Positions 11,759 to 55,939 are shown, counted from the stretch's first letter. The stretch: DNA of 55,939 nucleotides from a virus (IMGVR_UViG_2698536620_000014); one strand, 5' to 3'. Program-made: numbers and translations. The notes: a model not told the origin generated them from the sequence alone.

Positions 11759-11896
11759 ACGTTACTAGATCAAAGAGCATTAGTTCATATGTAAATTGAC
11801 ATTTTTCTGGCACAGGGGAGAGCTAGCGTGGTTGTCCGCTTTGTGCCAATAGCGGACATTGCTGGCTCATGGTATGTTAGTTTAAGGAGGCAGGTT

Positions 11897-12919: not shown

Positions 12920-12934
12920 TAGCGCAGGTCATAC

Positions 12935-31209: not shown

Positions 31210-31219
31210 ACATTCAAAC

Positions 31220-31239
31220 GGGGCTTCGGCCCCATTTTT
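31220..31239 (+). terminator. Rho-independent terminator after the capsid gene
   Basis: ggggc-ttcg-gcccc hairpin followed by attttt. Confidence 0.55.
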
Positions 31240-31251
31240 AATGGGGGGCAT

Positions 31252-31428: not shown

Positions 31429-31431
31429 CAC

Positions 31432-32591: not shown

Positions 32592-32980
32592 AGTTTACTG
32601 AAATCAGAAATACGGTTATTTCCAGAATGACGGCACAGACGATTATTGATGGAAAAGACGTATTGTATCCGAACGGGCCAACGTTCGATCCTTCCGGTAA
32701 GTTAATCTGGGCGCGGTTAAGTAATATTCCCGGGCAGGCTGGAGTTAATGAAATTGGCGCGGGGCCGGTTGTTTATCGCACGGGGATAATCATTATTCAG
32801 TTATTTGTCCCCGCAGGTTCTGGTTCAAAACTCATTACTGAGACAGCCGATAAATTGCGGGAACTGTTTGAGTTTCAGGATGACGATCGTCTCAGTTACC
32901 AGGCTGTTTCCTCAATAGCCGTTGGCGAAAAGAATGGCTGGTTCCAGCTTAATCTTCAAATTCCATATCGCGCGCTCTAG
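32588..32980 (+). CDS. Tail completion / tail terminator protein, 130 aa
   Basis: ATGA overlap with the previous gene; precedes the major tail gene. Confidence 0.55.
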   Translation: MKFTEIRNTVISRMTAQTIIDGKDVLYPNGPTFDPSGKLIWARLSNIPGQAGVNEIGAGPVVYRTGIIIIQLFVPAGSGSKLITETADKLRELFEFQDDDRLSYQAVSSIAVGEKNGWFQLNLQIPYRAL

Positions 32981-33006
32981 CGCAATTAATGACATAGGAG
33001 GCTCCT

Positions 33007-33969: not shown

Positions 33970-34017
33970 TTTTCCGTTATTCCTCCTGTGGTACTGCCCT
34001 ACAGGGGGACGCATTGA

Positions 34018-34479
34018 ATGAGGTTATGGATGTTTATTCTTAATCAGAAAATTATCATTGGTGGAGAACGCTGGTTTACGCCAATGAAGGACTTAAAACC
34101 TGTAGACGGGTTAAAACTGTTGGTGGCAAGCAGCGATAACGATCAGTATCGCTCCCGTAATGCATTAATCCGTCGCCACATTGAGAAAATGGATGCCAGT
34201 TTGCACGTCGGAACGAAGGAGTTTGATATTTCAAAGGTTTCCGAGGTGGATTCTGTTGATGATTTACTCATTGATAATGCCGCTCGTTATCTGCTGAAAG
34301 ACTGGAAAGGGGTTGGTGAACTGGTTAATGGTGTTGAGGTTGCACTGGAATATACGGCAGAACGAGGGATCGCGCTGCTTAAGCAGAATCCAGAGTTGTA
34401 CTGGCAGATCCTTGCAGAAGCAGCCAGCATCGCCCAGGGTAAAGAGCAGCAGAAGCAGGATACGATAAAAAAGCCATAG
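34018..34479 (+). CDS. Tail assembly chaperone (gpG-like), 153 aa
   Basis: Ends just after slippery A_AAA_AAG (34467-34473); immediately upstream of the tape measure gene. Confidence 0.65.
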   Translation: MRLWMFILNQKIIIGGERWFTPMKDLKPVDGLKLLVASSDNDQYRSRNALIRRHIEKMDASLHVGTKEFDISKVSEVDSVDDLLIDNAARYLLKDWKGVGELVNGVEVALEYTAERGIALLKQNPELYWQILAEAASIAQGKEQQKQDTIKKP

Positions 34480-34787
34480 CTGCCCAGCGGTGGTTATCGG
34501 AGTTCGGGGGAGAAAGGGGGGAAAAGGCAAGATGGAAGCGAGAAAAACTCAGGTTGCCACCGATACCGGAACCAGAAATAGACCCGGTGCTTAAGGAGTT
34601 GTTGTACGCCTATTCGGTAATATCCCGTGCCCGACGTTATGCTGGAATGGCTGGGGTGCCTTTGCCTTTATCTCTGACAGAGATAAATGAATATTTAGCC
34701 ACTCATCCGGTATTGATTGAGCGCGATGAATTTGAAGCAGTGATCTTTGCACTGGATGACCAGTATTTTCAGGAGCAGTGTGTGTAG
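34018..34787 (+). CDS. Tail assembly chaperone fusion (gpGT-like) by programmed -1 frameshift
   Basis: After a -1 slip at A_AAA_AAG the frame stays open through 34787 and is the same frame as the track ORF 34554-34787. Confidence 0.5.
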
Positions 34788-34952
34788 TTGTTAATTACGT
34801 ACACTCTGTTACAGAGATGTGATGGTGTCTTTAATTAAATCGATGATGCTCCTGGAGAAAAGCATTGCGTGGCCTCGTAATCGCTATATCTACTATTATG
34901 TCGCCTGAAACCCACTTCGCGGTGGGTTTTTTGTTGTCAGGAGTTTTAATAA

Positions 34953-37900: not shown

Positions 37901-38186
37901 TTTTGCAAAAGGGGCTGGTGTTTTTGGTGAGGCTGGACCGGAAGCCATTATGCCATTAACACGAACTTCCGATGGTTCTCTTGGTGTCAGAGCTATTAAT
38001 AGTAAAAGTGGTAATGGAGGCGGAGATATTACCTATGCCCCTGTATACCAAATCACTATTCAAAATGACGGCCAGAATGGAGAGATTGGCCCTCAGGCAA
38101 TAAAAGCACTTATGGGGATGGTTGATCAGCGGGTGCAGGGCAATCTGTTAAATATGCGACGTGATGGGGGAATGTTAAGTGGCTAA
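34953..38186 (+). CDS. Tail tape measure protein, 1077 aa
   Basis: Long coiled-coil-rich ORF (LAAAL, QQQ-rich repeats) with Gly-rich C-terminal region. Confidence 0.9.
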
Positions 38187-38517
38187 TACGGAAGAATTTC
38201 ACTGGTTACCAGAGGATGGAATGAAAACAGAAAATAAACCATCGATAAAAACTGTAAGATTTGGTGATGGTTATGAGCAACGAAGTCCAAATGGACTTAA
38301 TCATTCTCTGCGCGTTTTCACCTGTGATTTCAAAGTTGAGGCGAATGAACGTGATTCATTTGAAAAATTTTTAGCCCGGCATGAAGGCTATAAATCTTTT
38401 TTTTGGCGCCCGCCGGGTATTAACAGAAAAATCAGAGTGGTGTGTCGAACGTGGTCAGCGACAGAACATATCACCTATACCGATTTTTCGTGTCAGTTTG
38501 ACGAAGTGGTGATCTGA
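38179..38517 (+). CDS. Minor tail protein M (lambda gpM-like), 112 aa
   Basis: [16 protein letters not shown]...FWRPPG...FSCQFDEVV parallels lambda gpM. Confidence 0.85.
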
Positions 38518-39215
38518 TGCAGGACATACAACAGGAAACGCTGAATGAATGCATTCGTGCGGAGCAGTCGGCCAGCGTGGTGCTCTGGGAAATCGACCTG
38601 ACCGAGGTAGGCGGGGATCGCTACTTTTTCTGCAATGAGCAGAACGAGAAAGGAGAGTCTGTCACCTGGCAGAGTCGGCAGTATCAGGCCTATCCCATTC
38701 AGGGGAGTGGATTTGAGATGAACGGCAAAGGTGCCAGTGCAAGGCCAACGCTGAAAGTCTCTAATCTGCACGGCATGGTCACCGGGATGGCGGAAGACCT
38801 GCAGAGTCTGGTCGGCGGAACGGTGGTCAGGCGTAAGGTTTACGCCCGTTTTCTGGATGCGGTGAACTTCGTCAACGGAAACAGTGACGCCGATCCGGAG
38901 CAGGAGGTGATCAGCCGCTGGCGTATTGAGCAGTGCAGCGAACTGAGCGCGGTCAGTGCCTCCTTTGTACTGTCCACGCCGACGGAAACGGACGGCGCTG
39001 TTTTTCCGGGGCGCATCATGCTTGCTAATACCTGCACCTGGACCTATCGCGGTGATGAGTGCGGTTATCACGGTCCGGCTGTCGCGGATGAATATGACCA
39101 GCCAACGTCCGATATCACGAAGGATAAATGCAGCAAATGCCTGAGCGGTTGTAAGTTCCGCAATAACGTCGGCAACTTTGGCGGCTTCCTTTCCATTAAC
39201 AAACTTTCGCAGTAA
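38517..39215 (+). CDS. Minor tail protein L (lambda gpL-like), 232 aa
   Basis: Position after gpM; C-terminal Cys cluster (CSKCLSGCKFRNN). Confidence 0.85.
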   Translation: MQDIQQETLNECIRAEQSASVVLWEIDLTEVGGDRYFFCNEQNEKGESVTWQSRQYQAYPIQGSGFEMNGKGASARPTLKVSNLHGMVTGMAEDLQSLVGGTVVRRKVYARFLDAVNFVNGNSDADPEQEVISRWRIEQCSELSAVSASFVLSTPTETDGAVFPGRIMLANTCTWTYRGDECGYHGPAVADEYDQPTSDITKDKCSKCLSGCKFRNNVGNFGGFLSINKLSQ

Positions 39216-39220
39216 ATCCC

Positions 39221-39964
39221 ATGACACAGACAGAATCAGCGATTCTGGCGCACGCCCGGCGATGTGCGCCAGCGGAGTCGTGCGGCTTCGTGGTGAGAAC
39301 ACCGGAGGGGGAAAGATATTTTCCCTGCGTGAATATTTCCGGTGAGCCGGAGGAGTATTTCCGGATGGCTCCGGAGGACTGGCTGCAGGCAGAGATGCAG
39401 GGTGAGATTGTGGCGCTGGTCCACAGCCACCCCGGTGGTCTGCCCTGGCTGAGTGAGGCCGACCGGCGGCTGCAGGTGCAGAGTGATTTGTCGTGGTGGC
39501 TGGTCTGCCGCGGGGCGATTCACAAGTTCCGCTGTGTGCCGCATCTCACCGGGCGGCGCTTTGAGCACGGGGTGACGGACTGTTACACGCTGTTCCGGGA
39601 CGCTTACCATCTGGCGGGAATTGAGATGCCAGATTTTCATCGTGAGGACGACTGGTGGCGTAATGGTCAGAATCTCTATCTGGATAATCTGGAGGCTACA
39701 GGGCTGTATCAGGTGCCGTTGTCAGCGGCGCAGCCGGGCGATGTGCTGCTGTGCTGCTTTGGTTCATCGGTGCCGAATCATGCCGCCATTTACTGTGGTG
39801 ACGGCGAGCTGCTGCACCATATTCCTGAACAACTGAGTAAACGAGAGAGGTACACCGACAAATGGCAGCGACGCACACACTCCCTCTGGCGTCACCGGGC
39901 ATGGCACGCATCTGCCTTTACGGGGATTTACAACGATTTGGCCGCCGCATCGACCTTCGTGTGA
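39221..39964 (+). CDS. Tail assembly protein K (lambda gpK-like; MPN/JAB plus NlpC/P60 domains), 247 aa
   Basis: HSHPGG metalloprotease-like motif and a downstream Cys/His peptidase-like region. Confidence 0.85.
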   Translation: MTQTESAILAHARRCAPAESCGFVVRTPEGERYFPCVNISGEPEEYFRMAPEDWLQAEMQGEIVALVHSHPGGLPWLSEADRRLQVQSDLSWWLVCRGAIHKFRCVPHLTGRRFEHGVTDCYTLFRDAYHLAGIEMPDFHREDDWWRNGQNLYLDNLEATGLYQVPLSAAQPGDVLLCCFGSSVPNHAAIYCGDGELLHHIPEQLSKRERYTDKWQRRTHSLWRHRAWHASAFTGIYNDLAAASTFV

Positions 39965-40509
39965 AAACGGGGGCCGAAGCCATCCGGGCACTGGCCACAC
40001 AGCTCCCGGCATTTCGTCAGAAACTGAGCGACGGCTGGTATCAGGTGCGCATTGCCGGGCGTGATGCAGGCGAAAATGAATTATCTGCCCGTCTTAATGA
40101 ACCGCTGGCAAATGGTGCCGTGATCCACATCGTTCCGCGTCTGGCGGGTGCCAAAAGTGGCGGTGTGTTTCAGGCGGTGCTGGGTGCGGCGCTGATTGCG
40201 GTGGCATGGTGGAACCCTGTGGGCTGGCTGGGGGCCGCGGCTGTATCGGGTATGTATGCAGCAGGGGCCAGTATGATCCTGGGTGGTGTGGCGCAGATGC
40301 TGGCACCGAAAGCCAGGACGCCCACGGCAGCCAGTACAGATAACGGCAAACAGAACACGTATTTCTCGTCACTGGATAACATGGTTGCCCAGGGTAATGT
40401 TCTGCCTGTTCTGTACGGGGAAATGCGCGTGGGGTCACGTGTGGTTTCTCAGGAGATCAGCACGGCAGACGAAGGGGATGGTGGTCAGGTTGTGGTGATT
40501 GGTCGCTGA
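39862..40509 (+). CDS. Tail assembly protein I (lambda gpI-like), 215 aa
   Basis: MAATHTLPLASPGMARICLYGDLQRFGRR... matches my recollection of lambda gpI; overlaps the 3' end of K. Confidence 0.8.
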   Translation: MAATHTLPLASPGMARICLYGDLQRFGRRIDLRVKTGAEAIRALATQLPAFRQKLSDGWYQVRIAGRDAGENELSARLNEPLANGAVIHIVPRLAGAKSGGVFQAVLGAALIAVAWWNPVGWLGAAAVSGMYAAGASMILGGVAQMLAPKARTPTAASTDNGKQNTYFSSLDNMVAQGNVLPVLYGEMRVGSRVVSQEISTADEGDGGQVVVIGR

Positions 40510-40569
40510 TGCAAAATGTTTTATGAGAAACCGCCTGCGGGCGGTTTTGTCGTTTATGGAGCGTGAGGA

Positions 40570-43500
40570 ATGGGTAAAGGCAGCAGTAAGGGGCATACCC
40601 CGCGCGAAGCGAAGGACAACCTGAAGTCCACGCAGCTGCTGAGTGTGATCGATGCCATCAGTGAAGGGCCGGTTGAAGGTCCGGTGGATGGATTAAAAAG
40701 CGTGCTGCTGAACAGTACGCCGGTGCTGGACAATGAGGGGAATACCAACATCTCCGGCGTCACGGTGGTGTTCCGGGCAGGTGAGCAGGAGCAGTCACCG
40801 CCGGAGGGGTTTGAATCCTCCGGCTCCGAGACGGTGCTGGGTACGGAAGTGAAATATGACACGCCGATCACCCGGACCATCACGTCGGCAAACATCGACC
40901 GTCTGCGCTTTACCTTCGGTGTACAGGCACTGGTGGAAACCACCTCAAAGGGAGACAGGAATCCGTCGGAAGTCCGCCTGCTGGTTCAGATACAGCGTAA
41001 CGGTGGCTGGGTGACGGAAAAAGACATCACCATTAAGGGCAAAACCACCTCGCAGTATCTGGTCTCGGTGGTGGTGGATAACCTGCCTCCGCGCCCGTTC
41101 AGTATCCGGATGCGCAGGATGACACCGGACAGCACCACAGACCAGCTGCAGAACAAAACGCTCTGGTCGTCATACACCGAAATCATCGATGTGAAACAGT
41201 GCTACCCGAACACTGCACTGGTCGGCGTACAGGTGGACTCGGAGCAGTTCGGCAGCCAGCAGGTGAGTCGTAATTATCATCTTCGCGGGCGCATTCTGCA
41301 GGTGCCGTCGAACTATAACCCGCAGACGCGACAATACAGCGGTATCTGGGACGGAACGTTAAAACCAGCATACAGCAACAACATGGCCTGGTGTCTGTGG
41401 GATATGCTGACCCACCCGCGCTACGGCATGGGGAAACGTCTTGGTGCGGCGGATGTGGACAAATGGGCGCTGTATGTCATCGGCCAGTACTGCGACCAGT
41501 CAGTGCCGGACGGCTTTGGCGGCACGGAGCCGCGCATCACCTGTAATGCGTACCTGACCACACAGCGCAAGGCGTGGGATGTGCTCAGTGATTTCTGCTC
41601 GGCGATGCGCTGTATGCCGGTATGGAACGGGCAGACGCTGACGTTCGTGCAGGACCGACCGTCGGATAAGGTGTGGACCTATAACCGCAGTAATGTGGTG
41701 ATGCCGGATGATGGCGCGCCGTTCCGCTACAGCTTCAGCGCCCTGAAAGACCGCCATAATGCCGTTGAGGTGAACTGGATTGACCCGGATAACGGCTGGG
41801 AGACGGCGACAGAGCTTGTGGAGGATACGCAGGCCATTGCCCGTTACGGTCGTAACGTCACGAAGATGGATGCTTTTGGCTGTACCAGCCGGGGGCAGGC
41901 ACACCGCGCCGGGCTGTGGCTGATTAAAACAGAACTGCTGGAAACGCAGACCGTGGACTTCAGCGTGGGCGCAGAAGGGCTTCGCCATGTGCCGGGCGAT
42001 GTCATTGAAATCTGTGATGATGACTATGCGGGTATCAGCATCGGCGGGCGCGTGCTGGCGGTAAACAGCCAGACCCGGACGCTGACGCTCGACCGTGAAA
42101 TCACGCTGCCATCCTCCGGTACCATGCTGATAAGCCTGGTTGACGGAAGTGGCAATCCGGTCAGCGTGGAGGTTCAGTCCGTCACCGACGGCGTGAAGGT
42201 GAAAGTGAGCCGTGTTCCTGACGGCGTTGCTGAATACAGCGTGTGGGGGCTGAAGCTGCCGACGTTGCGCCAGCGCCTGTTCCGCTGTGTGAGTATCCGT
42301 GAGAACGATGACGGCACGTATGCCATCACTGCCGTGCAGCATGTACCGGAAAAAGAAGCCATCGTGGATAACGGGGCGCACTTTGACGGCGACCAGAGCG
42401 GCACGGTGAATGGTGTCACGCCGCCAGCGGTGCAGCACCTGACTGCCGAAGTCACCGCAGACAGCGGGGAATATCAGGTGCTGGCGCGCTGGGACACGCC
42501 GAAGGTGGTGAAGGGGGTGAGCTTTATGCTTCGCCTGACCGTGGCAGCGGATGACGGCAGTGAGCGGCTGGTCAGCACGGCCCGGACGACGGAAACCACA
42601 TACCGCTTCACGCAACTGGCGCTGGGACGGTACACGCTGACAGTCCGGGCGGTAAATGCCTGGGGACAGCAGGGCGATCCGGCGTCGGTATCGTTCAGGA
42701 TTGCCGCACCGGTAGCACCGTCGCGGATTGAGCTGACGCCGGGCTATTTTCAGATAACTGCCACGCCGCATCTTGCGGTTTATGATCCGACGGTACAGTT
42801 TGAGTTCTGGTTCTCGGAAACGCGGATTACCGATATCAGGCAGGTTGAAACCACAGCCCGCTACCTTGGCGCGGGGCTGTACTGGATAGCCGCCAGTATC
42901 AATATCAAACCGGGCCATGATTATTACTTTTATATCCGCAGTGTGAACACCGTTGGCAAATCGGCATTCGTGGAGGCCGTCGGTCGGGCGAGCGATGATG
43001 CGGAAGGTTACCTGGATTTTTTCAAAGGCAAGATAACCGAATCCCATCTCGGTAAAGAGCTGCTGGAAAAAGTTGATCTGACGGAGGATAACGCCAGCAG
43101 ACTGGATGAGTTTTCGAAAGAGTGGAAGGACGCTAACGATAAATGGAATGCGATGTGGGGCGTCAAAATTGAGCAGACCAAAGACGGCAAACATTATGTC
43201 GCGGGTATTGGCCTCAGCATGGAGGACACGGAGGAAGGCAAGCTGAGCCAGTTTCTGGTTGCCGCCAATCGTATCGCGTTTATTGACCCGGCAAACGGGA
43301 ATGAAACGCCGATGTTTGTGGCGCAGGGCAACCAGATATTCATGAACGACGTGTTCCTGAAGCGCCTGACAGCCCCCGCCATTACCAGCGGTGGCAGTCC
43401 TCCGGTATTTTCCCTGACATCAGACGGAAAGCTGACCGCTAAAAATGCGGATATCAGTGGTAGTGTGAATGCGAACTCAGGAACGCTCAACAATGTCACG

Positions 43501-43983
43501 ATTAACCAGAACTGTACGATTAAGGGCATGCTGGAGGCGACCCAGGTCAGAGGGGATTTCGTTAAAGCTGTATCAAAAGCCTTCCCGAAAAAAGTCGGTA
43601 CGTGGGGTAACACGGAAACACCAGACGGTACGGTTACAGTCACCATCAGCGATGATCATAACTTTGACCGCCAGATTATTATTCCGCCCATTATTTTTAA
43701 CGGTATAGCGTATGACGATCCGGGGAGCGGAAATAACCCAGGAGGCACGCGATACACGGGTTATGGTTTTGAAGTTCGCAAAAACGGCGTATTAATCGCA
43801 TCCAGAGAAACTAAAGGTGCCATTCCCGGTAGTTACAGTGCAGTTATTGATATGCCTAGTGGTGGTGGTAGCGTCACTCTGGAGTTTAAGATTTTCCAGA
43901 AAGGCAATCAGGGGGCAGGCAATATCACCGACTGTACGGTGATTGTGACCAAAAAAGCGGCTTCCGGCATCAGTATTCGTTGA
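40570..43983 (+). CDS. Tail tip / host specificity protein J, 1137 aa
   Basis: Lambda gpJ-sized ORF following gpI. Confidence 0.9.
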
Positions 43984-44053
43984 AATATTTATAACCCCAA
44001 TAAATGGCGTCAGGAATGACGCCTTTTTTATTGCAGAAAAGCGAGAGGTAATT

Positions 44054-44697
44054 ATGCGTAAACTTTATGCCGCCATTTTGTCCGCAGCCATTTGTCTGGC
44101 CGTATCCGGTGCGCCTGCATGGGCGTCTGAACATCAGTCCACGCTGAGCGCGGGGTATCTTCATNNNNNNNNNNNNNNNNNNNNNNNNNNNNNNNNNNNN
44201 NNNNNNNNNNNNNNNNNNNNNNNNNNNNNNNNNNNNNNNNNNNNNNNNNNNNNNNNNNNNNNNNNNNNNNNNNNNNNNNNNNNNNNNNNNNNNNNNNNNN
44301 NTTCAGCTATGCAGGAGACAAGAATCGCCAGCTGACCCGTTACAGCGATACCCGCTGGTATGAAGATTCCGTGCGTAACCGCTGGTTCAGCGTGATGGCG
44401 GGGCCGTCTGTGCGCGTGAATGAATGGTTCAGCGCGTATGCGATGGCGGGTGTGGCTTACAGCCGTGTGTCGACTTTTTCCGGGGATTATATCCGCGTAA
44501 CTGACAATAAGGGGAAAACGCACGATGTGCTGACCGGAAGTGATGACGGTCGCCACAGCAACACGTCTCTGGCGTGGGGAGCTGGCGTGCAGTTTAACCC
44601 GACCGAATCCGTGGCCATTGATATTGCTTATGAAGGCTCCGGCAGTGGCGACTGGCGCACTGACGGTTTCATCGTGGGTGTCGGTTATAAATTCTGA
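44054..44697 (+). CDS. lom: Lom/Ail-family outer membrane protein; middle of gene replaced by assembly gap
   Basis: Signal peptide MRKLYAAILSAAICLAVSGAPAWA before the gap; after it, beta-barrel C-terminus ...SGSGDWRTDGFIVGVGYKF closely matching lambda Lom. Confidence 0.7.
44165..44301. other. Assembly gap (137 N) inside lom
   Basis: Run of N. Confidence 0.99.
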
Positions 44698-44724
44698 TTA
44701 GCCAGGTAACACAGTGTTATGACA

Positions 44725-44750
44725 GCCCGCCGGTTCAGGCGGGCTTTTTT
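44725..44750 (+). terminator. Rho-independent terminator after lom
   Basis: gcccgcc-ggttca-ggcgggc hairpin followed by tttttt. Confidence 0.6.
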
Positions 44751-44761
44751 GTGGGGTGAAT

Positions 44762-46542
44762 ATGGCAGTAAAGATTTCAGGTGTACTGAAAGACGGCACA
44801 GGAAAACCGGTACAGAACTGCACAATCCAGCTGAAAGCAAAACGTAACAGCACCACGGTGGTGGTGAACACGCTGGCCTCAGAAAATCCGGATGAAGCCG
44901 GGCGTTACAGCATGGACGTTGAGTACGGTCAGTACAGCGTTATTCTGTTGGTGGAAGGATTCCCGCCGTCACATGCCGGGACCATCACCGTGTATGAAGA
45001 TTCCCGACCCGGTACGCTGAATGATTTTCTCGGTGCCATGACGGAGGATGATGCCCGTCCGGAGGCTCTGCGCCGTTTTGAACTGATGGTGGAAGAGGTG
45101 GCGCGTAACGCGTCCGCGGTGGCACAGAACACGGCAGCCGCGAAGAAGTCAGCCAGTGATGCCGGCACATCTGCCCGTGAGGCGGCAACCCATGCGACTG
45201 ATGCTGCAGGCTCAGCGCGTGCAGCCAGCACGTCAGCCGGACAGGCCGCGACTTCGGCTCAGGAGGCGTCTTCCAGCGCAGGAACGGCATCAACAAAGGC
45301 CACTGAAGCATCAAAAAGTGCTGCCGCTGCAGAGTCCTCAAAAAGCGCGGCGGCCACCAGTGCCGGTGCGGCGAAAACGTCAGAAACGAATGCTGCAGCG
45401 TCACAAAAATCAGCAGCCACTTCTGCATCCACTGCGACAACGAAAGCGTCAGAAGCCGCCACTTCAGCCAGAGATGCGGCGGCCTCCAAAGAGGCGGCAA
45501 AATCATCAGAAACGAACGCCTCCACAAGCGCCAGCAGTGCAGCCTCCTCGGCAACGGCGGCAGGAAATTCCGTGAAGGCGGCAAAAACGTCCGAGACGAA
45601 TGCTAAGTCTTCTGAAACGGCAGCGGAACAGAGCGCCTCAGCTGCGGCAGACTCTGAGACAGCAGCTGCATCATCGGCCCGTGAGGCGTCCATTAAGGCA
45701 GAGGAGGCAGCAGTCAGTGCCACCGCCGCCGGAAAATCGGCAGAAAGCGCCGCATCATCCGCTTCAACAGCCACAACGAAGGCTGGCGAAGCCACTGAAC
45801 AGGCCAGCGCAGCAGCGAGGTCTGCTTCCGCAGCGAAGACATCCGAAACGAACGCGAAAGCGTCGGAAACCAGCGCAGAATCCTCAAAAACGGCTGCCGC
45901 ATCGTCCGCCAGTTCGGCGGCGTCATCGGCATCATCTGCGTCTGCTTCAAAAGATGAGGCGACCAGACAGGCGTCAGCAGCGAGGGGCAGCGCCACGACG
46001 GCATCCACGAAGGCGACAGAGGCTGCTGGCAGTGCGGCAGCGGCAGCACAGAGCAAAAGTACGGCGGAATCCGCGGCAACGCGCGCCGAGACAGCAGCAA
46101 AACGGGCAGAGGATATTGCATCCGCCGTGGCGCTTGAGGATGCGAGCACGACGAAAAAGGGGATAGTACAGCTCAGCAGTGCGACCAACAGCACTTCCGA
46201 GTCACAGGCGGCAACGCCAAAAGCCGTTAAGGCCGCGTATGACCTGGCTAACGGGAAATACACCGCACAGGATGCAACGACAGCACAAAAAGGAATTGTC
46301 CAGCTCAGTAGTGCAACCAACAGCACATCTGAAACGCTTGCTGCGACACCGAAAGCAGTGAAAGCAGCTAATGACAATGCGAATGGTCGGGTACCTTCTG
46401 CCCGTAAGGTGAATGGTAAGGCGCTTTCAGCGGATATAACACTGACGCCGAAAGATATTGGTACGCTTAACTCAACAACAATGTCATTCAGCTATGCAGG
46501 AGACAAGAATCGCCAGCTGACCCGTTACAGCGATACCCGCTG
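44762..46542 (+). other. Side tail fibre gene, diverged 5' copy; reading frame runs into lom-derived sequence and a contig junction
   Basis: ATG 44762; near-identical to the N-terminus of the stf at 46814 for about the first 130 codons, then diverges in the Ala/Ser/Thr repeat region; after ...LNSTTMS (46486) the sequence is the 56-57 nt lom segment also found at 44302-44358, then a single N. Confidence 0.5.
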
Positions 46543-46749
46543 GNTCGCGTAACTGACAACAAGGGGAAAACGCACGATGTGCTGACCGGAAGTGATGACG
46601 GTCGCCACAGCAACACGTCTCTGGCGTGGGGAGCTGGCGTGCAGTTTAACCCGACCGAATCCGTGGCCATTGATATTGCTTATGAAGGCTCCGGCAGTGG
46701 CGACTGGCGCACTGACGGTTTCATCGTGGGTGTCGGTTATAAATTCTGA
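46487..46749 (+). other. Second partial copy of the lom 3' region (contains single-N contig join at 46543)
   Basis: Matches 44302-44358 and 44494-44697 of the first lom copy with at least one substitution; about 136 nt of the first copy is absent at the N. Confidence 0.5.
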
Positions 46750-46776
46750 TTAGCCAGGTAACACAGTGTTATGACA

Positions 46777-46802
46777 GCCCGCCGGTTCAGGCGGGCTTTT
46801 TT
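46777..46802 (+). terminator. Rho-independent terminator (copy of the lom terminator)
   Basis: Same gcccgcc / ggcgggc hairpin plus T-run as at 44725-44750. Confidence 0.6.
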
Positions 46803-46813
46803 GTGGGGTGAAT

Positions 46814-49800
46814 ATGGCAGTAAAGATTTCAGGTGTACTGAAAGACGGCACAGGAAAACCGGTACAGAACTGCACAATCCAGCTGAAAGCAAAACGTAAC
46901 AGCACCACGGTGGTGGTGAACACGCTGGCCTCAGAAAATCCGGATGAAGCCGGGCGTTACAGCATGGACGTTGAGTACGGGCAGTACAGCGTTATTCTGT
47001 TGGTGGAGGGATTCCCGCCGTCACATGCCGGGACCATCACCGTGTATGAAGATTCCCGACCCGGTACGCTGAATGATTTTCTCGGTGCCATGACGGAGGA
47101 TGATGCCCGTCCTGAGGCACTGCGCCGCTTTGAACTGATGGTGGAAGAGGTGGCGCGTAACGCGTCCGCGGTGGCACAGAACACGGCAGCCGCGAAGAAA
47201 TCAGCCAGCGATGCCAGCACATCAGCCCGTGAGGCGGCAACCCGTGCGACTGATGCTGCAGGCTCAGCACGAGCAGCCAGCACGTCAGCCGGACAGGCCG
47301 CTTCGTCGGCTCAGTCTGCGTCTTCCAGCGCAGGAACGGCATCAGCAAAGGCCACTGAAGCATCAAAAAGTGCTGCCGCTGCAGAGTCCTCAAAAAGCGC
47401 GGCGGCCACCAGTGCCGGTGCGGCGAAAACGTCAGAAACGAATGCGGCAGCGTCACAACAATCAGCTGCCACTTCTGCATCCACCGCGACCACGAAAGCG
47501 TCAGAAGCAGCCACCTCAGCCAGAGATGCGTCGGCTTCAAAAGAGGCGGCAAAATTATCAGAAACGAGCGCAGCTTCGAGCGCCAGTAATGCCGCTTCCT
47601 CGGCAACGGCGGCAGGAAATTCCGCGAAGGCGGCAAAGACGTCTGAGACAAACGCTAAGTCCTCTGAAACGGCAGCAGCACAGAGTGCCTCCGCAGCAGC
47701 AGGCTCAAAAACAGCGGCTGCGTCGTCTGCCAGTGCAGCGTCAACAAGTGCCGGGCAGGCCTCAGCCAGTGCTAGCGCCGCCGGAAAATCGGCAGAAAGC
47801 GCCGCATCGTCCGCTTCAACAGCCACAACGAAGGCTGGCGAAGCCACTGAACAGGCCAGTGCAGCAGCGAGGTCTGCTTCCGCAGCGAAGACATCGGAGA
47901 CGAACGCGAAAGCGTCGGAGACCAGCGCAGAATCCTCAAAAACGGCTGCCGCATCGTCCGCCAGTTCGGCGGCGTCATCGGCATCATCGGCGTCTGCTTC
48001 AAAAGATGAGGCGACCAGACAAGCGTCCGCAGCGAAGGGCAGCGCCACGACAGCATCCACGAAGGCGACAGAGGCTGCTGGCAGTGCGACGGCGGCAGCA
48101 CAGAGCAAAAGTACGGCGGAATCCGCGGCAACGCGCGCCGAGACAGCGGCAAAACGTGCAGAGGATATTGCATCCGCCGTGGCGCTTGAGGATGCGAGCA
48201 CGACGAAAAAGGGGATAGTACAGCTCAGTAGTGCGACTAATAGCACGTCTGAAACGCTGGCGGCAACGCCAAAGGCAGTAAAAGCAGCCAATGACAATGC
48301 TGAGAAACGTCTGCAGAAAGACCAGAACGGCGCTGATATACCCGATAAGGGACGCTTCCTGAACAACATTAACGCGGTCAGTAAAACAGACTTTGCTGAT
48401 AAGCGTGGTATGCGTTATGTGCGGGTTAACGCTCCTGCAGGTGCAACATCTGGAAAATATTACCCTGTTGTTGTTATGCGTTCTGCTGGCTCAGTAAGCG
48501 AACTGGCATCAAGGGTCATTATCACCACGGCAACGCGAATCGCAGGCGATCCGATGAATAACTGCGAGTTTAACGGATTTGTTATGCCTGGTGGCTGGAC
48601 TGACAGGGGGCGTTATGCTTATGGAATGTTCTGGCAATATCAAAACAATGAACGAGCCATCCACTCAATAATGATGAGTAATAAGGGCGATGATTTGCGC
48701 TCTGTGTTCTATGTTGATGGCGCTGCTTTCCCTGTTTTTGCGTTTCTCGAAGATGGCCTGTCAATATCCGCACCTGGTGCTGATCTCGTTGTTAATGATA
48801 CGACCTATAAGTTTGGGGCAACAAATCCGGCGACTGAATGTATCGCGGCGGACGTTATCCTTGATTTTAAGAGTGGGCGTGGTTTTTATGAGTCTCATTC
48901 GTTAATCGTTAACGATAACTTGTCGTGCAAAAAACTTTTTGCCACAGACGAAATTGTAGCGCGTGGTGGTAATCAGATTCGAATGATAGGTGGGGAGTAT
49001 GGTGCATTATGGCGTAATGATGGCGCTAAAACTTACCTGCTGCTTACCAATCAAGGTGATGTTTATGGTGGCTGGAATACATTAAGACCGTTTGTTATTG
49101 ATAACGCAACCGGCGAACTGGTTATTGGAACCAAACTGTCTGCAAGTCTGAACGGTAACGCATTGACAGCAACAAAGCTGCAAACGCCAAGACTGGTTTC
49201 TGGTGTTGAGTTTGATGGTTCCAAAGATATTACTTTAACCGCCGCGCATGTGGCTGCTTTTGCCAGAAGGGCAACGGATACATATGCCGATGCGGATGGT
49301 GGCGTTCCATGGAATGCCGAATCAGGCGCTTACAATGTCACCCGCTCTGGCAACAGCTATATTCTGGTTAACTTCTATACCGGAGTCGGAAGTTGCCGGA
49401 CCTTGCAGATGAAGGCGCATTACAGAAATGGTGGTCTGTTCTACCGTTCTTCAAGAGACGGTTATGGTTTTGAGGAAGACTGGGCAGAAGTTTATACCTC
49501 GAAAAATCTTCCACCAGAAAGCTACCCAGTCGGTGCACCAATCCCGTGGCCATCAGATACCGTTCCGTCTGGTTATGCCCTGATGCAGGGACAGACTTTT
49601 GACAAATCTGCTTACCCGAAACTTGCAGCCGTTTATCCGTCAGGTGTGATCCCTGATATGCGTGGCTGGACGATTAAGGGCAAACCTGCCAGTGGTCGGG
49701 CCGTATTGTCTCAGGAACAGGACGGCATTAAATCGCATACCCACAGCGCCAGCGCATCCAGTACGGATTTGGGGACGAAAACCACATCGTCGTTTGATTA

Positions 49801-50212
49801 CGGCACTAAATCCACGAATAACACTGGTGCGCATACCCATAGTTTAAGTGGCAGCACGAATGCAGCTGGTAATCACAGCCATAGAGATGGCCGTCGATTT
49901 AACCCCAGTGTTTTTAAAGATACTTATCAATATGGTTATACAAGCTCAGGTCAAAATACCTGGGGTGTACAAGGCTCAGTAGGTATGTCTACGGGGTGGT
50001 TAGCGAATACCAGTACAGATGGTAATCATAGCCACTCACTGTCCGGCACAGCAGCATCTGCAGGTGCACACGCGCATACTGTCGGTATTGGTGCTCATAC
50101 GCACTCCGTTGCGATTGGTTCACATGGACATACCATCACCGTTAACGCTGCGGGTAACGCGGAAAACACCGTCAAAAACATCGCATTTAACTATATTGTG
50201 AGGCTTGCATAA
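46814..50212 (+). CDS. stfR: Side tail fibre protein (StfR-like), about 1132 aa
   Basis: ATG 46814 after GGGGTG; long Ala/Ser/Thr-rich repeat region; His-rich C-terminus (GAHTHSLSG...GNHSHSLSG...[24 protein letters not shown]) typical of fibre tips; followed by tfa. Confidence 0.85.
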
Positions 50213-50796
50213 TGGCATTCAGAATGAGTGAACAACCACGGACCATAAAAATTTATAATCTGCTGACCGGAACTAATGAATTTATTGGTGAAGGTGACGC
50301 ATATATTCCGCCTCATACAGGTCTGCCAGCAAACAGTACCTATATTGCACCGCCAGATATTCCGGCTGGCTTTGTGGCTGTTTTCAACAGTGATGAGGCA
50401 TCGTGGCATCTCGTTGAAGACCATCGGGGTAAAACGGTTTATGACGTAGCGTCAGGGGACGCGTTATTTATTTCTGAACTCGGTCCGTTACCGGAAAATG
50501 TTACCTGGTTATCCCCGGAAGGGGAATATCAGAAGTGGAACGGTACAGCTTGGGTGAAAGATGCAGAAGCAGAAAAACTATTCCGGATCCGGGAGGCGGA
50601 AGAAACAAAAAACAGCCTGATGCAGGTAGCCAGTGAGCATATTGCGCCGCTTCAGGATGCTGCAGATCTGGAAATCGCAACGGAGGAAGAAACCTCGTTG
50701 CTGGAAGCCTGGAAAAAGTATCGGGTGTTGCTGAACCGTGTTGATACATCAACTGCACCTGATATTGAGTGGCCTGCGGTCCCTGTTATGGAGTAA
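50212..50796 (+). CDS. tfaR: Tail fibre assembly protein (Tfa), 194 aa
   Basis: ATGG overlap with the stf stop; size and position of lambdoid Tfa. Confidence 0.85.
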
Positions 50797-50908
50797 TCGT
50801 TTTGTGATATGCCGCAGCAACTTGTCATGGCAGGATACTGCGGCTGATTTGTGAATTTAAATAGTGTGTTTATTGCTTTATATATAAAGGATTTAATGGA
50901 TTACATAT

Positions 50909-52279
50909 CTATGATATCCCTGAAATGTCCTCTTCAAGCTCTTTTACTGATTTCGCAATTTTAAATTTAAATTTTCTCTCTATTTCACTATTGCTAAGTT
51001 TTTTTTCATTCTCTTTCCCTATCCACATAGAAACAATTTCTCGTTTCTGAGATATATGTAGATTGTCAAAGTTAGGTATGTATTTAAAAGTCTCCGCTCT
51101 ACCCCTGCGGAGTTCATAGAAAGTTTTAATCAAAGACTTTGGTTTTATTTCTGATGAAAGGCCGAATCGGCGGATAAGATTATTGATCGTATGATTAACA
51201 GCTCGAAGTTGAGCTGTTGACGTTATTTGTGAGAAGTACGATACCCATCCCAATCGTTTACCTTCAAACACACATCCCGTAATTCTAAGATTTAGTTTCC
51301 ACTGACAATATGCAACAGCTCGTTCTTTATCGCGCTTATTTTTAGCTTGTAGTAGAGCGTGTCTATATGCAGTAAAAATTTTTGCTAAGGATGACTCAAA
51401 TCTAAGAATGCTCTCATGTTTTATCAATAATTCTCGATTTTTTATGTGGTAGCCCAAAAAGTTGAAACTTTCATCCAAGCTGCCTACTTTGGATTTTGAG
51501 TTCTCTTCATTTAATGGATGTGGGTTTAAATTTAATGATTGAAGCTTATCAATGATATGAGAAGCTATTTTTGTTGCTTGATATTTTGGTGTTAAAATAA
51601 GAATGTCATCAACGTATCGCATGTACCATATGTCATGCATTTTATTGATTTCATCATCGAAATTAGATAGTGATATTTCAGCTAAAATGTTTGATATCGC
51701 TAATCCCTGAGGTACTCCTCTGGTATTATTAGGGATACCTTTGCTTCCTGTGGTTCCACTTACAGTAGGCACGATTAATGATGATGTTATTAACTGTCTA
51801 ATTTCTTTTTTTCTAATTTTATTTTTTATTGCATTAATTATCAATTTATGTTCAATTGAAGGATAGAAACTTTTAAGATCTATTTTTGCATATTCAGCAT
51901 ATAGACTGTTGTTTAATGCTTCTTTCAATGAGTCAATTACTGTATGTGGTAGTTTTAATCTGGACTTAGGATATATTTCCGTAAGGCATTCACAGAGAGC
52001 TCTAAGAGTAATTCTGTCCCTAGCAGTTGGTATGGAAATCTGTCTGGGTGTAGAGTTAGCGCCTTTAGATATTAATTTTTCTTTATATGCTGTAAATTTG
52101 TAATTGCCAGAATTAACCTTTTCAAAAATGAAAGTGATCTCATTTTTTATTGTCAAATCAAGTTTTGATGGGCGAATCCGATCTATGCCAATCGCTCCTG
52201 ATTCTTTGATTTTTTCAGAGTATACTTTTAGAAGATTTTTTTTCGAGAATGACTTTTTAAAAATTCTGCTTGCAGTCAT
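50909..52279 (-). CDS. Reverse transcriptase (defence-associated type: retron-like or UG/Abi-like), 456 aa
   Basis: RT motifs in translation: KIDLKSFYPSI, GVPQGLAISNILAEISL, YMRYVDDILIL (YxDD active site), FNFLGYHI. ATG at 52277-52279 lies 23 nt inside the upstream membrane-protein ORF. AT-rich. Confidence 0.85.
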   Translation of the reverse strand: MTASRIFKKSFSKKNLLKVYSEKIKESGAIGIDRIRPSKLDLTIKNEITFIFEKVNSGNYKFTAYKEKLISKGANSTPRQISIPTARDRITLRALCECLTEIYPKSRLKLPHTVIDSLKEALNNSLYAEYAKIDLKSFYPSIEHKLIINAIKNKIRKKEIRQLITSSLIVPTVSGTTGSKGIPNNTRGVPQGLAISNILAEISLSNFDDEINKMHDIWYMRYVDDILILTPKYQATKIASHIIDKLQSLNLNPHPLNEENSKSKVGSLDESFNFLGYHIKNRELLIKHESILRFESSLAKIFTAYRHALLQAKNKRDKERAVAYCQWKLNLRITGCVFEGKRLGWVSYFSQITSTAQLRAVNHTINNLIRRFGLSSEIKPKSLIKTFYELRRGRAETFKYIPNFDNLHISQKREIVSMWIGKENEKKLSNSEIERKFKFKIAKSVKELEEDISGIS

Positions 52280-52808
52280 AGTCAATCCAAAGATATATTA
52301 ATGGGAGTATATAAAGTGCGGCAGTAATAAATATTCGAAGTAATATCCATAAAATAACAATTATTTTTTCTTTTTGTGTGGGGATCCTCGTCTTAAGTCC
52401 AACTTGAGTTACCCTTGAAATTTTATCATCTATGTCACGGTGATTCTCAACCTCATTGAGCAAATTAAAATATTTTTCTTTCTGTTCAAGAGATAACTGT
52501 TGACTGGTGGTAATGTCAAAATAGAGTCGCTGTAGTGCAATATAATTCCTTCTCATGGCTATTGCTCGACCACGAAAATCTAGGTTAGATACGATCAGAG
52601 AAATACCCAGTAGAGCCACTGAAAGTATCGCCGCAACGACATCTGTATTATCTCCTAGAACCTTTGGAAATCGCAACGTTACAATTGAAAGTACCGCACT
52701 CAATATAGCATACCAAACGAGGATAAATTGAGAGTGTTTTTCAAGCCATTCTAGTCGATGGTGCGCTTGGATACGTGCTTTATATGTAAACCAAATATTG
52801 TCATGCAT
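52257..52808 (-). CDS. Multi-pass membrane protein co-transcribed with the RT (candidate effector), 183 aa
   Basis: ATG 52806-52808 after AAGGA; hydrophobic helices LVWYAILSAVLSIVTL, VVAAILSVALLGISLIVSNL and IIVILWILLRIFITAALYILPLIYLW. Confidence 0.7.
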   Translation of the reverse strand: MHDNIWFTYKARIQAHHRLEWLEKHSQFILVWYAILSAVLSIVTLRFPKVLGDNTDVVAAILSVALLGISLIVSNLDFRGRAIAMRRNYIALQRLYFDITTSQQLSLEQKEKYFNLLNEVENHRDIDDKISRVTQVGLKTRIPTQKEKIIVILWILLRIFITAALYILPLIYLWIDYDCKQNF

Positions 52809-53030
52809 AAAAGATCCTTTTTAAAAGCGGAAGGGGCAGGATATATTGGAACCGTTGAACATCCTGCCCGGCAGGATCAGTGAGCATAAGCTCAACAGTA
52901 AAATATTACTGTTCATTATCAGAGCCGCCCTTGCATGCGCAAGAGGAAAAACCTGCCCCATCCCTTTGAATTATTACAATTTAATGATCTTAAAGTCAAT
53001 ACAAGTGAATGGTGTCCAGAGATGATGAAC
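52809..53030 (-). ncRNA. Structured non-coding region upstream of the membrane-protein/RT operon (candidate RT-associated ncRNA or operator)
   Basis: Four copies of a GGGCAGGAT-type arm in alternating orientation (52833-52842, 52861-52869, 52870-52877, 52952-52959) plus a small cttgc-atgc-gcaag hairpin (52930-52943); no ORF. Confidence 0.3.
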
Positions 53031-53279
53031 TTAATGAACAAACCACTCGTCAGCAGACTCCCAGGTATCTTTCAGAGTCTCCTGAACAAAAGTTTTAGCT
53101 GAATCTTTATCAGCGGTGCGCGTAACAGAAAGGCCATCGTTGCTGGTGGCTTTTACGATCACTTCTACATCGTCATAACGTTTACTGATGCGTCGGGTTA
53201 ATTCTTCCTTTAACGCATCCACAGCACCGGTTGGCATTTTAGTCATTTTTTCTTTGGCTATGCAGATTTCAATACGCAT
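53031..53279 (-). CDS. DinI-like protein, 82 aa
   Basis: [35 protein letters not shown]...[17 protein letters not shown] resembles E. coli DinI as I recall it. Confidence 0.8.
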
Positions 53280-53339
53280 AAAAGTCCCCTACACTGTATT
53301 TGTATACAGTATTATTTTTAACTGTATGGATAAACAGTG

Positions 53340-54437
53340 TCAAGAGGTCTTATTTCTGCTCCTTTGGAGTTCTTCAAAACGATTATGTAAAGATTTCGGA
53401 TACAGTTCGGTATATACCTGCCATAGCACGTTTAATGAACGATGCCCTGTAACCTGAGCGACTTCCTCAATACTAAAACCAGCCTCAAATAAGCGACTTG
53501 CCCCTTCTCTACGCAAATCATGGTATCTCAGATCTTTAATACCTAATTTGCTTCTTACCCTCTGAAATCCTGCGGTAACAGAAGTGCTGTTATATGGAAA
53601 AATGAATTCTGATTTTTTGGGTTGTCGCTGGACGATATCCCAGGCTTCCCCAAGCAAGGCAACTTTCATATGGTTGCCTTCCTTTTTACGTGGATCTTTC
53701 CTGTCTCTTACTAGTATAGATTTTTGTTCCTGGTCGAGATCTTCCCATCGTAACCGGCATACTTCTCCGATTCGCATACAGGACCACACAGAAAATTTGA
53801 GGATATCAACGAACGGAATTTTTGAGCATTTATGAGTAGATCGTTGTTGAAGGCCTTCAATGAGCATGTTCAGTTCATCAGATGCTGGTCTACGATTACG
53901 ACGGTTTGATTTACCAATCAAACCGAGTTTAAGTAGATATGGACGAGCGCTTTTCGCCGGGTTTGATGTGTAATTGATTCCGTATACAGGTTTTGCCGCA
54001 TCCAGAACACTGCCAAGATAACTAACATCGTGGCTGACTGTTGCTGGGCCTGCACCAGCGTTGTTTCTTAGCCTGCAATGTTCAATTACGTCATTTTCTG
54101 TCAGTTCAGATAGTTTGATCGCGGAGATGTCACTATCCATAAGCAGTTCCAGCACATATCTTTTAGTACGGCCTGCTTTACCTCCGGCATTTGGGTCATT
54201 TAAATATTTGTGTAGTAAGTCACGGACTGTAAGTCCGTCAACAGCATTTGATGATGGAATGCCATATAGATCTAATTCCATCACTTTCTGTGCGCCCCAT
54301 GTTTTGGCATGAGCATGTTTAGGGAATGTTTTGCTTTCCCTGTAAGTGATAACACCTTTTTCTTTGATAATCACATTACAGCGATAGCGTGGTGTGCCAT
54401 CGGATTTTAGTCGTTTCTCTATGTTATAGTACGCCAT
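53340..54437 (-). CDS. Tyrosine integrase adjacent to dusA (candidate DusA-associated integrase), 365 aa
   Basis: C-terminal catalytic region with HDLRREGASRLFEAGFSIEEVAQVTGHRSLNVLWQVY (H-x-x-R ... Y); divergent from dusA with an 88-bp spacer. Confidence 0.85.
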   Translation of the reverse strand: MAYYNIEKRLKSDGTPRYRCNVIIKEKGVITYRESKTFPKHAHAKTWGAQKVMELDLYGIPSSNAVDGLTVRDLLHKYLNDPNAGGKAGRTKRYVLELLMDSDISAIKLSELTENDVIEHCRLRNNAGAGPATVSHDVSYLGSVLDAAKPVYGINYTSNPAKSARPYLLKLGLIGKSNRRNRRPASDELNMLIEGLQQRSTHKCSKIPFVDILKFSVWSCMRIGEVCRLRWEDLDQEQKSILVRDRKDPRKKEGNHMKVALLGEAWDIVQRQPKKSEFIFPYNSTSVTAGFQRVRSKLGIKDLRYHDLRREGASRLFEAGFSIEEVAQVTGHRSLNVLWQVYTELYPKSLHNRFEELQRSRNKTS

Positions 54438-54456
54438 TACACGACCTCGTTATTTC

Positions 54457-54493
54457 GGGTTCCCATAAAGCGTGGGAACCTGTGCGGGAACCT
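54457..54493. repeat. Inverted and direct GGGAACC repeats in the int-dusA spacer (candidate integrase-binding or att-associated sites)
   Basis: gggttccc (54457-54464) is the inverted partner of gggaacc (54474-54480); gggaacct is directly repeated at 54486-54493. Confidence 0.35.
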
Positions 54494-54525
54494 AACGCGA
54501 GAAAAATAGCCTGAAATGTTCAAAA

Positions 54526-55563
54526 ATGCACGATAATCCTGAAACACAGAAAACTAATCAAACCAGCGTGATGCCTGAAAAAACTGGCGCTTACTGGAGT
54601 TCTCGGTTTAGCATTGCTCCTATGCTCGACTGGACGGACAGACATTGCCGCTATTTCTTGCGTCTGCTTTCCCGCAATACGTTGCTGTATACCGAAATGG
54701 TGACCACAGGGGCGATTATTCACGGTAAAGGTGATTACCTGGCGTACAGTGAAGAAGAACATCCGGTAGCGTTGCAACTCGGCGGTAGCGATCCGGCGGC
54801 GCTGGCACAGTGTGCGAAGCTGGCAGAAGCGCGTGGATATGATGAGATCAACCTGAATGTCGGCTGCCCGTCTGACCGGGTGCAGAACGGCATGTTTGGT
54901 GCGTGTCTGATGGGTAATGCGCAGCTGGTTGCCGACTGCGTGAAAGCGATGCGCGATGTGGTGTCGATTCCAGTGACGGTGAAAACGCGTATTGGCATCG
55001 ATGACCAGGACAGCTATGAATTTCTCTGCGATTTCATCAACACCGTTTCCGGCAAAGGCGAGTGTGAGATGTTTATCATCCACGCACGTAAAGCCTGGCT
55101 TTCGGGGTTAAGCCCGAAAGAAAACCGTGAAATCCCGCCACTCGATTATCCGCGTGTGTATCAACTGAAGCGTGACTTTCCGCATCTGACAATGTCGATT
55201 AACGGTGGTATCAAGTCGCTGGAAGAGGCCAAAGCACACCTGCAACATATGGATGGCGTGATGGTCGGGCGCGAGGCGTATCAGAATCCGGGTATTCTGG
55301 CGGCGGTAGACCGGGAGATCTTTGGTTCCTCGGATACCGATGCCGATCCGGTGGCGGTAGTGCGCGCCATGTATCCGTACATTGAGCGTGAACTCAGCCA
55401 GGGGACGTATCTCGGCCATATTACCCGGCATATGTTGGGCTTGTTCCAGGGTATTCCTGGCGCGCGGCAGTGGCGGCGTTATTTAAGTGAAAATGCCCAT
55501 AAAGCGGGTGCAGACATTAATGTGCTGGAACACGCGCTCAAACTGGTGGCGGATAAGCGTTAA
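54526..55563 (+). CDS. dusA: tRNA-dihydrouridine synthase A, 345 aa
   Basis: Dus-family core with [22 protein letters not shown]...[14 protein letters not shown]...; host housekeeping gene. Confidence 0.9.
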
Positions 55564-55696
55564 CTTTTCACCAAAAAGTAGTCAAATTCACCACGCCCTG
55601 CGCACCGTCGCGGGGCGTTTTGCTGTTAAATCAATAGATTATTTTTGGCATGATTCTTGTAATGCCAGCAAGAGATTTCATATTTGGGAGAGCATC

Positions 55697-55939
55697 ATGC
55701 TGGAACTACTTTTTGTGATTGGCTTTTTTGTCATGCTGATGGTCACCGGCGTTTCGTTGCTGGGCATTATCGCCGCGCTGGTTGTGGCGACGGCCATTAT
55801 GTTCCTCGGCGGTATGCTGGCATTGATGATTAAGTTGCTGCCGTGGTTACTACTGGCGATTGCGGTGGTGTGGGTTATTAAGGCGATTAAAGCACCAAAA
55901 GTGCCGAAATATCAGCGTTATGACCGCTGGCGTTACTAA
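55697..55939 (+). CDS. pspG: Phage shock protein G, 80 aa
   Basis: ATG 55697 after GGGAGAG; MLELLFVIGFFVMLMVTGVSLLGIIAALVV... small inner-membrane protein downstream of dusA, as in K-12. Confidence 0.85.
   Translation: MLELLFVIGFFVMLMVTGVSLLGIIAALVVATAIMFLGGMLALMIKLLPWLLLAIAVVWVIKAIKAPKVPKYQRYDRWRY

Follow-up and report, generated by a model that had tools for sequence, protein, structure and literature searches.

A second lom-stf copy in a scaffolded prophage record is very probably a false join between a Rac-site and a dusA-site prophage

In the viral stretch IMGVR_UViG_2698536620_000014, two diverged copies of the end of the outer-membrane protein gene lom and the beginning of the side tail fibre gene stf follow each other directly, and the question is whether a lambdoid prophage has duplicated this segment or whether an assembler has produced it. 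The stretch comprises 55,939 nucleotides (nt), is given as one strand read 5' to 3', and is called the window here. The original prediction for this DNA had offered two answers, a real tandem duplication or sequence from a second lambdoid prophage scaffolded in. The window is 100% identical to the 82,049-bp record CWVG01000002.1, part of the draft assembly GCA_001249615.1, across the 19 kb compared, and this source record is a short-read, scaffolded draft assembly. Runs of N occupy 20100-20342 (243), 44165-44301 (137) and 46544 (1), and we refer to the pieces as contig A (1-44164), contig B (44302-46543) and contig C (from 46545). Our comparisons of these pieces with related genomes indicate that the apparent lom-stf duplication is very probably a scaffold mis-join combined with a false gap closure, by which a prophage at the Rac site was joined to another prophage at dusA.

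The two copies are alike in the way that was first described, with many substitutions and an indel in stf. A gap-free alignment of 44493-46251 with 46545-48303 gave 112 mismatches (93.6% identity), and when one indel of 132 nt (44 codons) is allowed the likeness of the copies extends to 46380 and 48300. The second copy is therefore where it was predicted to be, and only its end has moved, to near 48300 from 48250. A unit of 14 residues occurs twice in contig B and once in the second copy, exact runs of 420, 104, 100, 71, 71 and 68 nt are common to both, and past 46380 and 48300 the two fibre genes are unrelated. Contig B was also seen to start and end with the same lom sequence, and this holds with a small shift: its first 57 nt equal its last 57 nt (44302-44358 and 46487-46543, the latter ending one base beyond the predicted 46542), and the single N follows. 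This identity of prefix and suffix was seen in none of the other contig pieces of the window or of six sister loci, and is thus specific to contig B. After the single N the second copy takes up lom only from the position that corresponds to 44493, so that it lacks 134 nt of the gene (44359-44492).

As was noticed from the start, the first stf copy (stf1) reads straight into lom. The resulting open reading frame (ORF) of 596 amino acids (aa), at 44762-46552, passes from Stf directly into the Lom residues FSYAGDKNRQLTRYSDTRW. All three lom fragments in the window (37, 131 and 56 aa) match PF06316, a family of about 199 aa; no intact lom exists in the window, and an intact 199-aa lom is found in the sister assembly L006. 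Both stf copies lie 3' of J-lom and carry the PF08400 N-terminal domain (E ~1e-71 to 1e-72); the shortened stf1 also matches Phage_fiber_2, and the second copy (stf2) also matches Gp34_trimer and Collar. Neither the fibre genes, which are of the lambda side tail fibre type, nor the lom pieces, which are Ail/Lom fragments, are out of the ordinary.

The left part of the window belongs to a prophage at the Rac site. Window 1-44164 is colinear with the ttcA/intR prophage of the complete genome NCTC9082 at 98.1-99.4%, apart from a swapped cargo segment at 11737-15340, and that prophage starts at intR beside ttcA and ends with J-lom-stf-tfaR-sitDCBA-uspF, which is the K-12 Rac attachment site. Since the IntR protein (15,968 index blocks) was too unspecific to define the flank, RecE was used instead and the flank was taken by neighbourhood identity. 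The exact RecE protein was found in 29 index blocks, of which 24 contigs were read and reported as one shared neighbourhood; in the one place shown, intR-ttcA-dbpA-zntB lies beside it. The exact J protein was found in 517 index blocks, and in the three shown places with a long enough contig it is followed by a 199-aa lom, a 986-aa stf, tfa, sitDCBA, uspF and ompN. Overall, window 1-46492 shares with Rac-site prophages, both the cryptic Rac of K-12 with its lomR-stfR-tfaR and the intact NCTC9082 relative, the attachment-site integrase and the gene order (intR, recET, kilR, sieB, ydaSTUV, lysis genes, trkG, a P22-like head, a lambda-like tail, J, lom and stf) at 98-99.4% identity. Unlike them, it is cut inside stf1 and is without the 3' half of stf, tfa and the sit/uspF flank.

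Contig B continues this same prophage. Window 30570-44164 is 99.94% identical to the related Rac-site locus L013, and on L013 contig A ends at 13595 and contig B starts at 13689; therefore the gap of 137 N stands for 93 nt, a stretch rich in single-nucleotide polymorphisms (SNPs) between paralogues. The stf of contig B differs from those of L013-L016 by one mismatch over ~1.5 kb and by having one 141-nt repeat unit fewer, whereas it is 6.4% different from stf2. Because this near-identical stf follows an identical J and lies next to sitDCBA-uspF, the fibre gene of contig B belongs to the main prophage of the window. In related loci, natural stf1 runs on as TTCAGCGGTGGTGC... into a protein of ~986 aa, followed by tfa, sitDCBA and uspF, and its continuation was read there as ...ACAATGTCATTCAGCGGTGGTGCTGG...; this natural continuation is absent from the window, the gene being cut by the false join. 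A search with the 575-aa Stf1 fragment against 5.8 billion proteins returned only cluster representatives of ≤96% identity. Near 46276, stf1 is without the 141-nt (47-codon) unit held by the otherwise identical stf of L013 (15565-15705), which is either real variation in repeat number or a tandem repeat collapsed in short-read assembly.

The right part belongs to a different element. Window 46545-55939 is 99.3% identical to the complete genome NZ_CM151362.1 (strain 09A22CPO026), in which the element is integrated at dusA and the order is lom-stf-tfa-RT-SLATT-dinI-integrase-dusA-pspG, RT being a reverse transcriptase gene. The exact Stf2 protein was found in eight public contigs, and in all of them tfa-RT-SLATT-dinI-int-dusA follows. 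Over the first 119 compared bases the lom of contig C has zero mismatches to L006, and it has none to 09A22CPO026 across the lom bases 46545-46749; L006 and NZ_CM151362.1 in turn are free of mismatches over the stretch that begins at the 3' end of J, crosses lom and enters stf2. In both of these, a different lambda-like tail set lies 5' of stf2, with gpG/T, a 1,021-aa tape measure protein and a J that is 95.6% identical to the J of the window. The best complete-genome match to this D-type tail module, which is upstream of stf2 in L006 and L004, was 97.9% over 9.9 kb, beside an integrase and dusA, in strain ESBL 15. The right part thus resembles dusA-integrated elements with an adjacent tyrosine integrase (09A22CPO026, ESBL 15) in its order of lom-stf-tfa-cargo-int-dusA-pspG, and 09A22CPO026 in particular in its RT-SLATT cargo. 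It departs from them in that the false join has put the Rac-site prophage in the place of their own tail module, with the 1,021-aa tape measure protein and D-type J. Each of the two prophages is an ordinary representative of its group, Rac-site or dusA-site.

It follows from these assignments that the flanks of the duplicated block come from two loci, the ttcA/intR Rac site on the left and int-dusA-pspG on the right, and not from one as in a tandem duplication. The suggestion that a second lambdoid prophage had been scaffolded in was right in kind and wrong as to which piece is foreign: what is mis-joined is everything from 46545 on, the right quarter of the window, and not the small repeat contig, which belongs to the main prophage. 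The other suggestion, a real tandem duplication, does not stand, given flanks from different chromosomal sites, N gaps at the joins and a junction found in none of the other records searched.

Six sister assemblies (L004, L005, L006, L007, L008 and L010), which have an identical host flank and an identical Stf2 protein, disagree about what precedes this gene. L006 has the D-type module and a single intact 199-aa lom without any N, and L004 has the D-type module upstream of stf2 with a gap in lom. In L005 and L010 the module upstream of stf2 is the A-type, that of contig A. In L007 and L008 the order is jumbled into pseudo-tandems interrupted by four or five gaps: L007 (CWWC01000004.1, 1-10000) reads J'-lom-stf'-fibre-tfa-J'-lom-stf2 with four N gaps, and in L008 (CWWD01000004.1, 1-9300) pieces of J are duplicated. 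From these pseudo-tandems it follows that the same repeat problem is present in several public records of the project. Along the downstream stretch that all of them share, every difference of the sisters from L006 lies in lom, in tfa or in the 5' part of stf2. We read the near-even split of upstream modules as the coin-flip expected of a greedy scaffolder on a two- or three-copy repeat.

The junction itself carries the marks of assembly. The 57-nt segment (S) at both ends of contig B is unchanged in all 11 lom copies examined (10 loci), and the bases on either side of it, at -1 (a/g) and +58 (c/t), vary among paralogues. This makes S a maximal exact repeat, of the kind that collapses to one node of the assembly graph. 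The original view of this terminal repeat as the sign of a repeat contig placed by a scaffolder was essentially right. Contig A stops on the last base in common ahead of a cluster of SNPs, contig B starts at the shared 57-mer and contig C starts on a SNP. Joins at contig ends or N runs and at repeat boundaries, pieces from different loci and inconsistent sister assemblies are together what a mis-join leaves behind. A tandem duplication would be uninterrupted sequence, and here 137 N stand before the first copy, and a single N stands 57 nt past the junction, where lom is 134 nt short.

At the point where stf1 passes into lom, natural stf matches from complete genomes reach 46492 and natural lom matches from phages begin at 46483, and the join is therefore a 10-nt overlap, GTCATTCAGC. 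This overlap is common to natural stf1 and to natural lom with a at position -1, and the base beyond it differs on each side. Natural stf1 and lom have six 10-mers in common (overlapping, at four distinct sites) against 1.7 expected, so that a chance overlap of 10 nt is unremarkable. As written, the record reads ACAATGTCA up to the join and TTCAGCTATGCAGG after it. No record spanning this junction was found among 5,426 complete E. coli genomes or among 50,697 phage records, nor was the stf-to-lom junction found in the six sister loci. In an index of 153 billion gene positions, the chimeric 596-aa product had no record besides CWVG01000002.1. On the mis-join reading, the Stf::Lom ORF is not a real gene, and no biological mechanism is involved.

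Published descriptions of assembly tools fit these observations. By default, GapFiller takes a gap as closed when its two extensions overlap by ≥10 nt, provided that the insertion departs from the estimated gap by no more than 50 nt (PMC3446322), and the junction overlap equals this default closing threshold. The Sanger assembly pipeline first runs VelvetOptimiser with k at 66-90% of read length and then applies SSPACE for 16 rounds and GapFiller for 120; its authors caution that both of these programs work greedily and that false joins may result (PMC5320598). The 10-nt overlap, the pattern of N runs and the accession series lead us to infer that a pipeline of the Velvet/SSPACE/GapFiller type built the record and made the false closure. 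The window resembles false joins of these programs in that the joins are at contig ends, a single N stands where the gap estimate was exhausted, and a gap was closed on an overlap equal to the default n (PMC3446322); it differs from a plain case in its 61-nt intermediate block, which calls for a short repeat contig between B and C. A pure de Bruijn self-loop was rejected as a sufficient cause of a contig that begins and ends with S, as it would need k-mers spanning the junction with only 10 nt shared.

The record has then very probably arisen as follows. The scaffold follows the Rac-site prophage from intR to J, the 5' part of lom, the gap, the 3' part of lom and the 5' part of stf1, and then jumps to the lom-stf2-tfa end of the other prophage, at dusA. 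What looks like a second diverged copy is the paralogous lom-stf of the dusA-site prophage. At 46486/46487, where fibre passes into lom, a gap would have been closed wrongly because 10 nt overlap there by chance; a short repeat contig would have lain between B and C, with the single N as a second gap left unclosed that hides 134 nt of lom. Past 46492/46493, stf1 would naturally read GGTGGTGCTGG, and the sequence ...TTCAGCGGTGGTGCTGGTTGG... would lie on a separate contig running into tfa-sitDCBA-uspF. The strain carries at least two, and probably three, lambdoid prophages with near-identical J-lom-stf modules.

Three findings weigh against this account. Three of the seven assemblies (the window, L005 and L010) join the A-type module to the dusA end, which could count as support for the join. 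GapFiller alone leaves the 61-nt lom block between the closed junction and the single N unexplained, and a short intermediate contig has to be required. The lom part of contig B has eight differences from the Rac-site lom of related lineages (L013) and carries the SNP pattern of another lom paralogue, and contig B may itself be a paralogue mosaic. In favour of the account, on the other hand, traces of paralogue mixing are also present in contig A, where the K protein (39221-39964, a C40 peptidase) was found only in the source record within the gene index. Here dusA-site (D-type) alleles occur at 39725, 39930 and 39933 in an otherwise Rac-type contig, and the bases at 39757, 43818, 44063 and 44067 are private to the source record; the mixture in K and the private bases probably reflect paralogue-mixed consensus calling.

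The best surviving alternative, though an unlikely one, is that the junction between stf1 and lom was real in the culture or in part of it, and came out of the assembler as a self-looping contig, either as a recent tandem duplication mediated by the microhomology GTCATTCAGC or as an excised 2,185-bp lom'-stf' circle of the Rac-site prophage, with the link to contig C still being a scaffolding error. A contig consisting of one unit plus 57 nt of the next has the de Bruijn look of an identical tandem duplication or a circle. The microhomology of 10 nt also fits junctions of RecA-independent duplications. Like genuine microhomology-mediated tandem duplications, then, the window has a novel junction, a short microhomology and a contig end that repeats its start; unlike them, its two "copies" are 6.4% diverged paralogues from different loci, and the junction is in one record only, absent from the six sister assemblies and from all complete genomes and phage records searched. 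Moreover, the lom side ends exactly where the universal 57-mer ends, followed by N and not by the allele of contig B itself. The base before S at the junction is a, as in the Rac-site lom of L013 and the dusA-site lom of L006, whereas lom copies with the contig B pattern (L007, L008) have g. The length of the overlap is also the default threshold of the gap closer.

We give very little credence to the idea that the Rac-site and dusA-site prophages truly recombined, in which case a hybrid prophage or a chromosomal rearrangement would make the link from A to C genuine and only contig B would be misplaced. E. coli is well known for homologous exchange among its lambdoid prophages, the two modules have exact runs of up to 420 nt in common, and L010 has an N-free path from the A-type J into stf2. 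However, in L010 the switch from A-type to D-type SNPs is exactly at the shared 57-mer, as expected of a path switch in the graph, and isolates with an identical host flank have the D-type module at this junction. Orientation decided the matter, and the inter-prophage recombinant was rejected on it. On the K-12 map, stfR (1.43 Mb; Rac site at 1.41-1.43 Mb) and dusA (4.26 Mb) are both on the + strand, and the halves of the window have the same relative orientation as these sites. As both sites have the same orientation and are 2.83 Mb apart, the scaffold join, with A on the left and C on the right, corresponds to the 2.83-Mb deletion product of a crossover between direct repeats, an argument that presumes the usual E. 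coli backbone order. Such a product would lose oriC, which we take to lie inside the 2.83-Mb K-12 interval between stfR and dusA.

A genuine old tandem duplication of lom-stf within one prophage, with copies diverged to 93.6% and arranged as scaffolded, has the scaffold order and the A-type tail genes upstream of stf2 in L005, L010 and the window in its favour, but is barely credible: N gaps mark both joins, the second lom is short of 134 nt, the first stf is cut in frame into lom with no natural counterpart in the records searched, the scaffold ends belong to chromosomal sites 2.8 Mb apart and L006 has one gap-free copy.

The coordinates of the features are collected in Table 1.

Table 1. Features of the window and of the junction between the two prophages
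Feature	Position	Strand	Remarks
Contig(s) A, Rac-site lambdoid prophage	1-44164	+	intR to J to first 37 codons of lom; contains the 243-N gap
intR	1-1236	-	Left end of contig A
J	40570-43983	+	Contig A
lom 5' part (first 37 codons)	44054-44164	+	End of contig A
Scaffold gap inside lom, 137 N	44165-44301	.	93 nt in related gap-free assemblies
lom 3' part, 131 codons	44302-44697	+	Start of contig B; Pfam Ail_Lom
stf1, 5' 1,731 nt	44762-46492	+	Rac-site side tail fibre gene; PF08400, Phage_fiber_2
Chimeric Stf::Lom ORF	44762-46552	+	596 aa, one X
Junction overlap GTCATTCAGC, 10 nt	46483-46492	+	stf matches end at 46492, lom matches begin at 46483
57-nt lom segment S	46487-46543	+	Equal to 44302-44358
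Single N	46544	.	In place of 134 nt of lom (equivalent of 44359-44492)
lom 3' end, dusA-site prophage	46545-46749	+	Start of contig C, at a paralogue SNP position
stf2, intact, 1,132 aa	46814-50212	+	PF08400, Gp34_trimer, Collar
tfa	50212-50796	+	dusA-site element
DRT UG17 reverse transcriptase	50909-52285	-	dusA-site element; PADLOC match
SLATT	52257-52808	-	dusA-site element; PADLOC match
dinI	Between SLATT and integrase		dusA-site element
Integrase	53340-54437	-	dusA-site element
dusA	54526-55563		Host flank, then spacer and first bases of pspG to 55939

We also noted several features away from the junction. On the dusA side, the two-gene cargo between tfa and dinI/integrase matches RT_UG17 (PADLOC, E = 1e-158) and an RT-associated SLATT model (E = 1.5e-56), and from these model matches the pair is a candidate reverse-transcriptase defence system. 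The same cargo is present in NZ_CM151362.1, and ESBL 15 has DUF4765 genes at this place. All 16 differences between the window and L006 over 9.4 kb are in tfa (50526-50715) and at the 5' end of stf2 (46981, 47008). These two are multi-copy phage genes, the other, single-copy genes of the 9.4-kb stretch being identical to L006, which speaks for mixing of paralogues or for gene conversion more than for point mutations.

On the Rac side, segment 11737-15340 has no match to the NCTC9082 prophage, in which the anti-phage genes iteS/iteA occupy the same position, so that the window differs from this relative in carrying another cargo cassette in place of iteAS. Two + strand ORFs in this segment, at 11828-12919 (363 aa) and 12935-13936 (333 aa), had no PADLOC match and gave sub-threshold Pfam hints of HEPN_RES_NTD1 (E = 2e-4) and a GNAT acetyltransferase (E = 9e-4). 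These ORFs may form a cargo cassette, so far uncharacterised, at a hotspot for defence genes. The remaining gap, of 243 N, corresponds to ~240 nt in the lysis-gene region of NCTC9082 (L003 6699-6938) and looks like a correctly sized, benign scaffold gap.

In conclusion, there is no new biology in this locus, and the practical effects are confined to annotation and downstream analysis. The "prophage" in GCA_001249615.1 / CWVG01000002.1 is a chimera: it has two integrases, its lom is in three fragments, and one ORF fuses Stf to Lom (Stf::Lom). Programs that predict prophages, surveys of tail fibres or host range and pangenome analyses that use this scaffold, or a sister such as CWWC01000004.1, would obtain a false hybrid phage, a false duplication and protein variants known from one record. 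The locus can serve as a worked example: apparent tandem duplications in the lambdoid J-lom-stf region of scaffolded short-read assemblies need to be checked against the positions of N runs and the SNP boundaries between paralogues.

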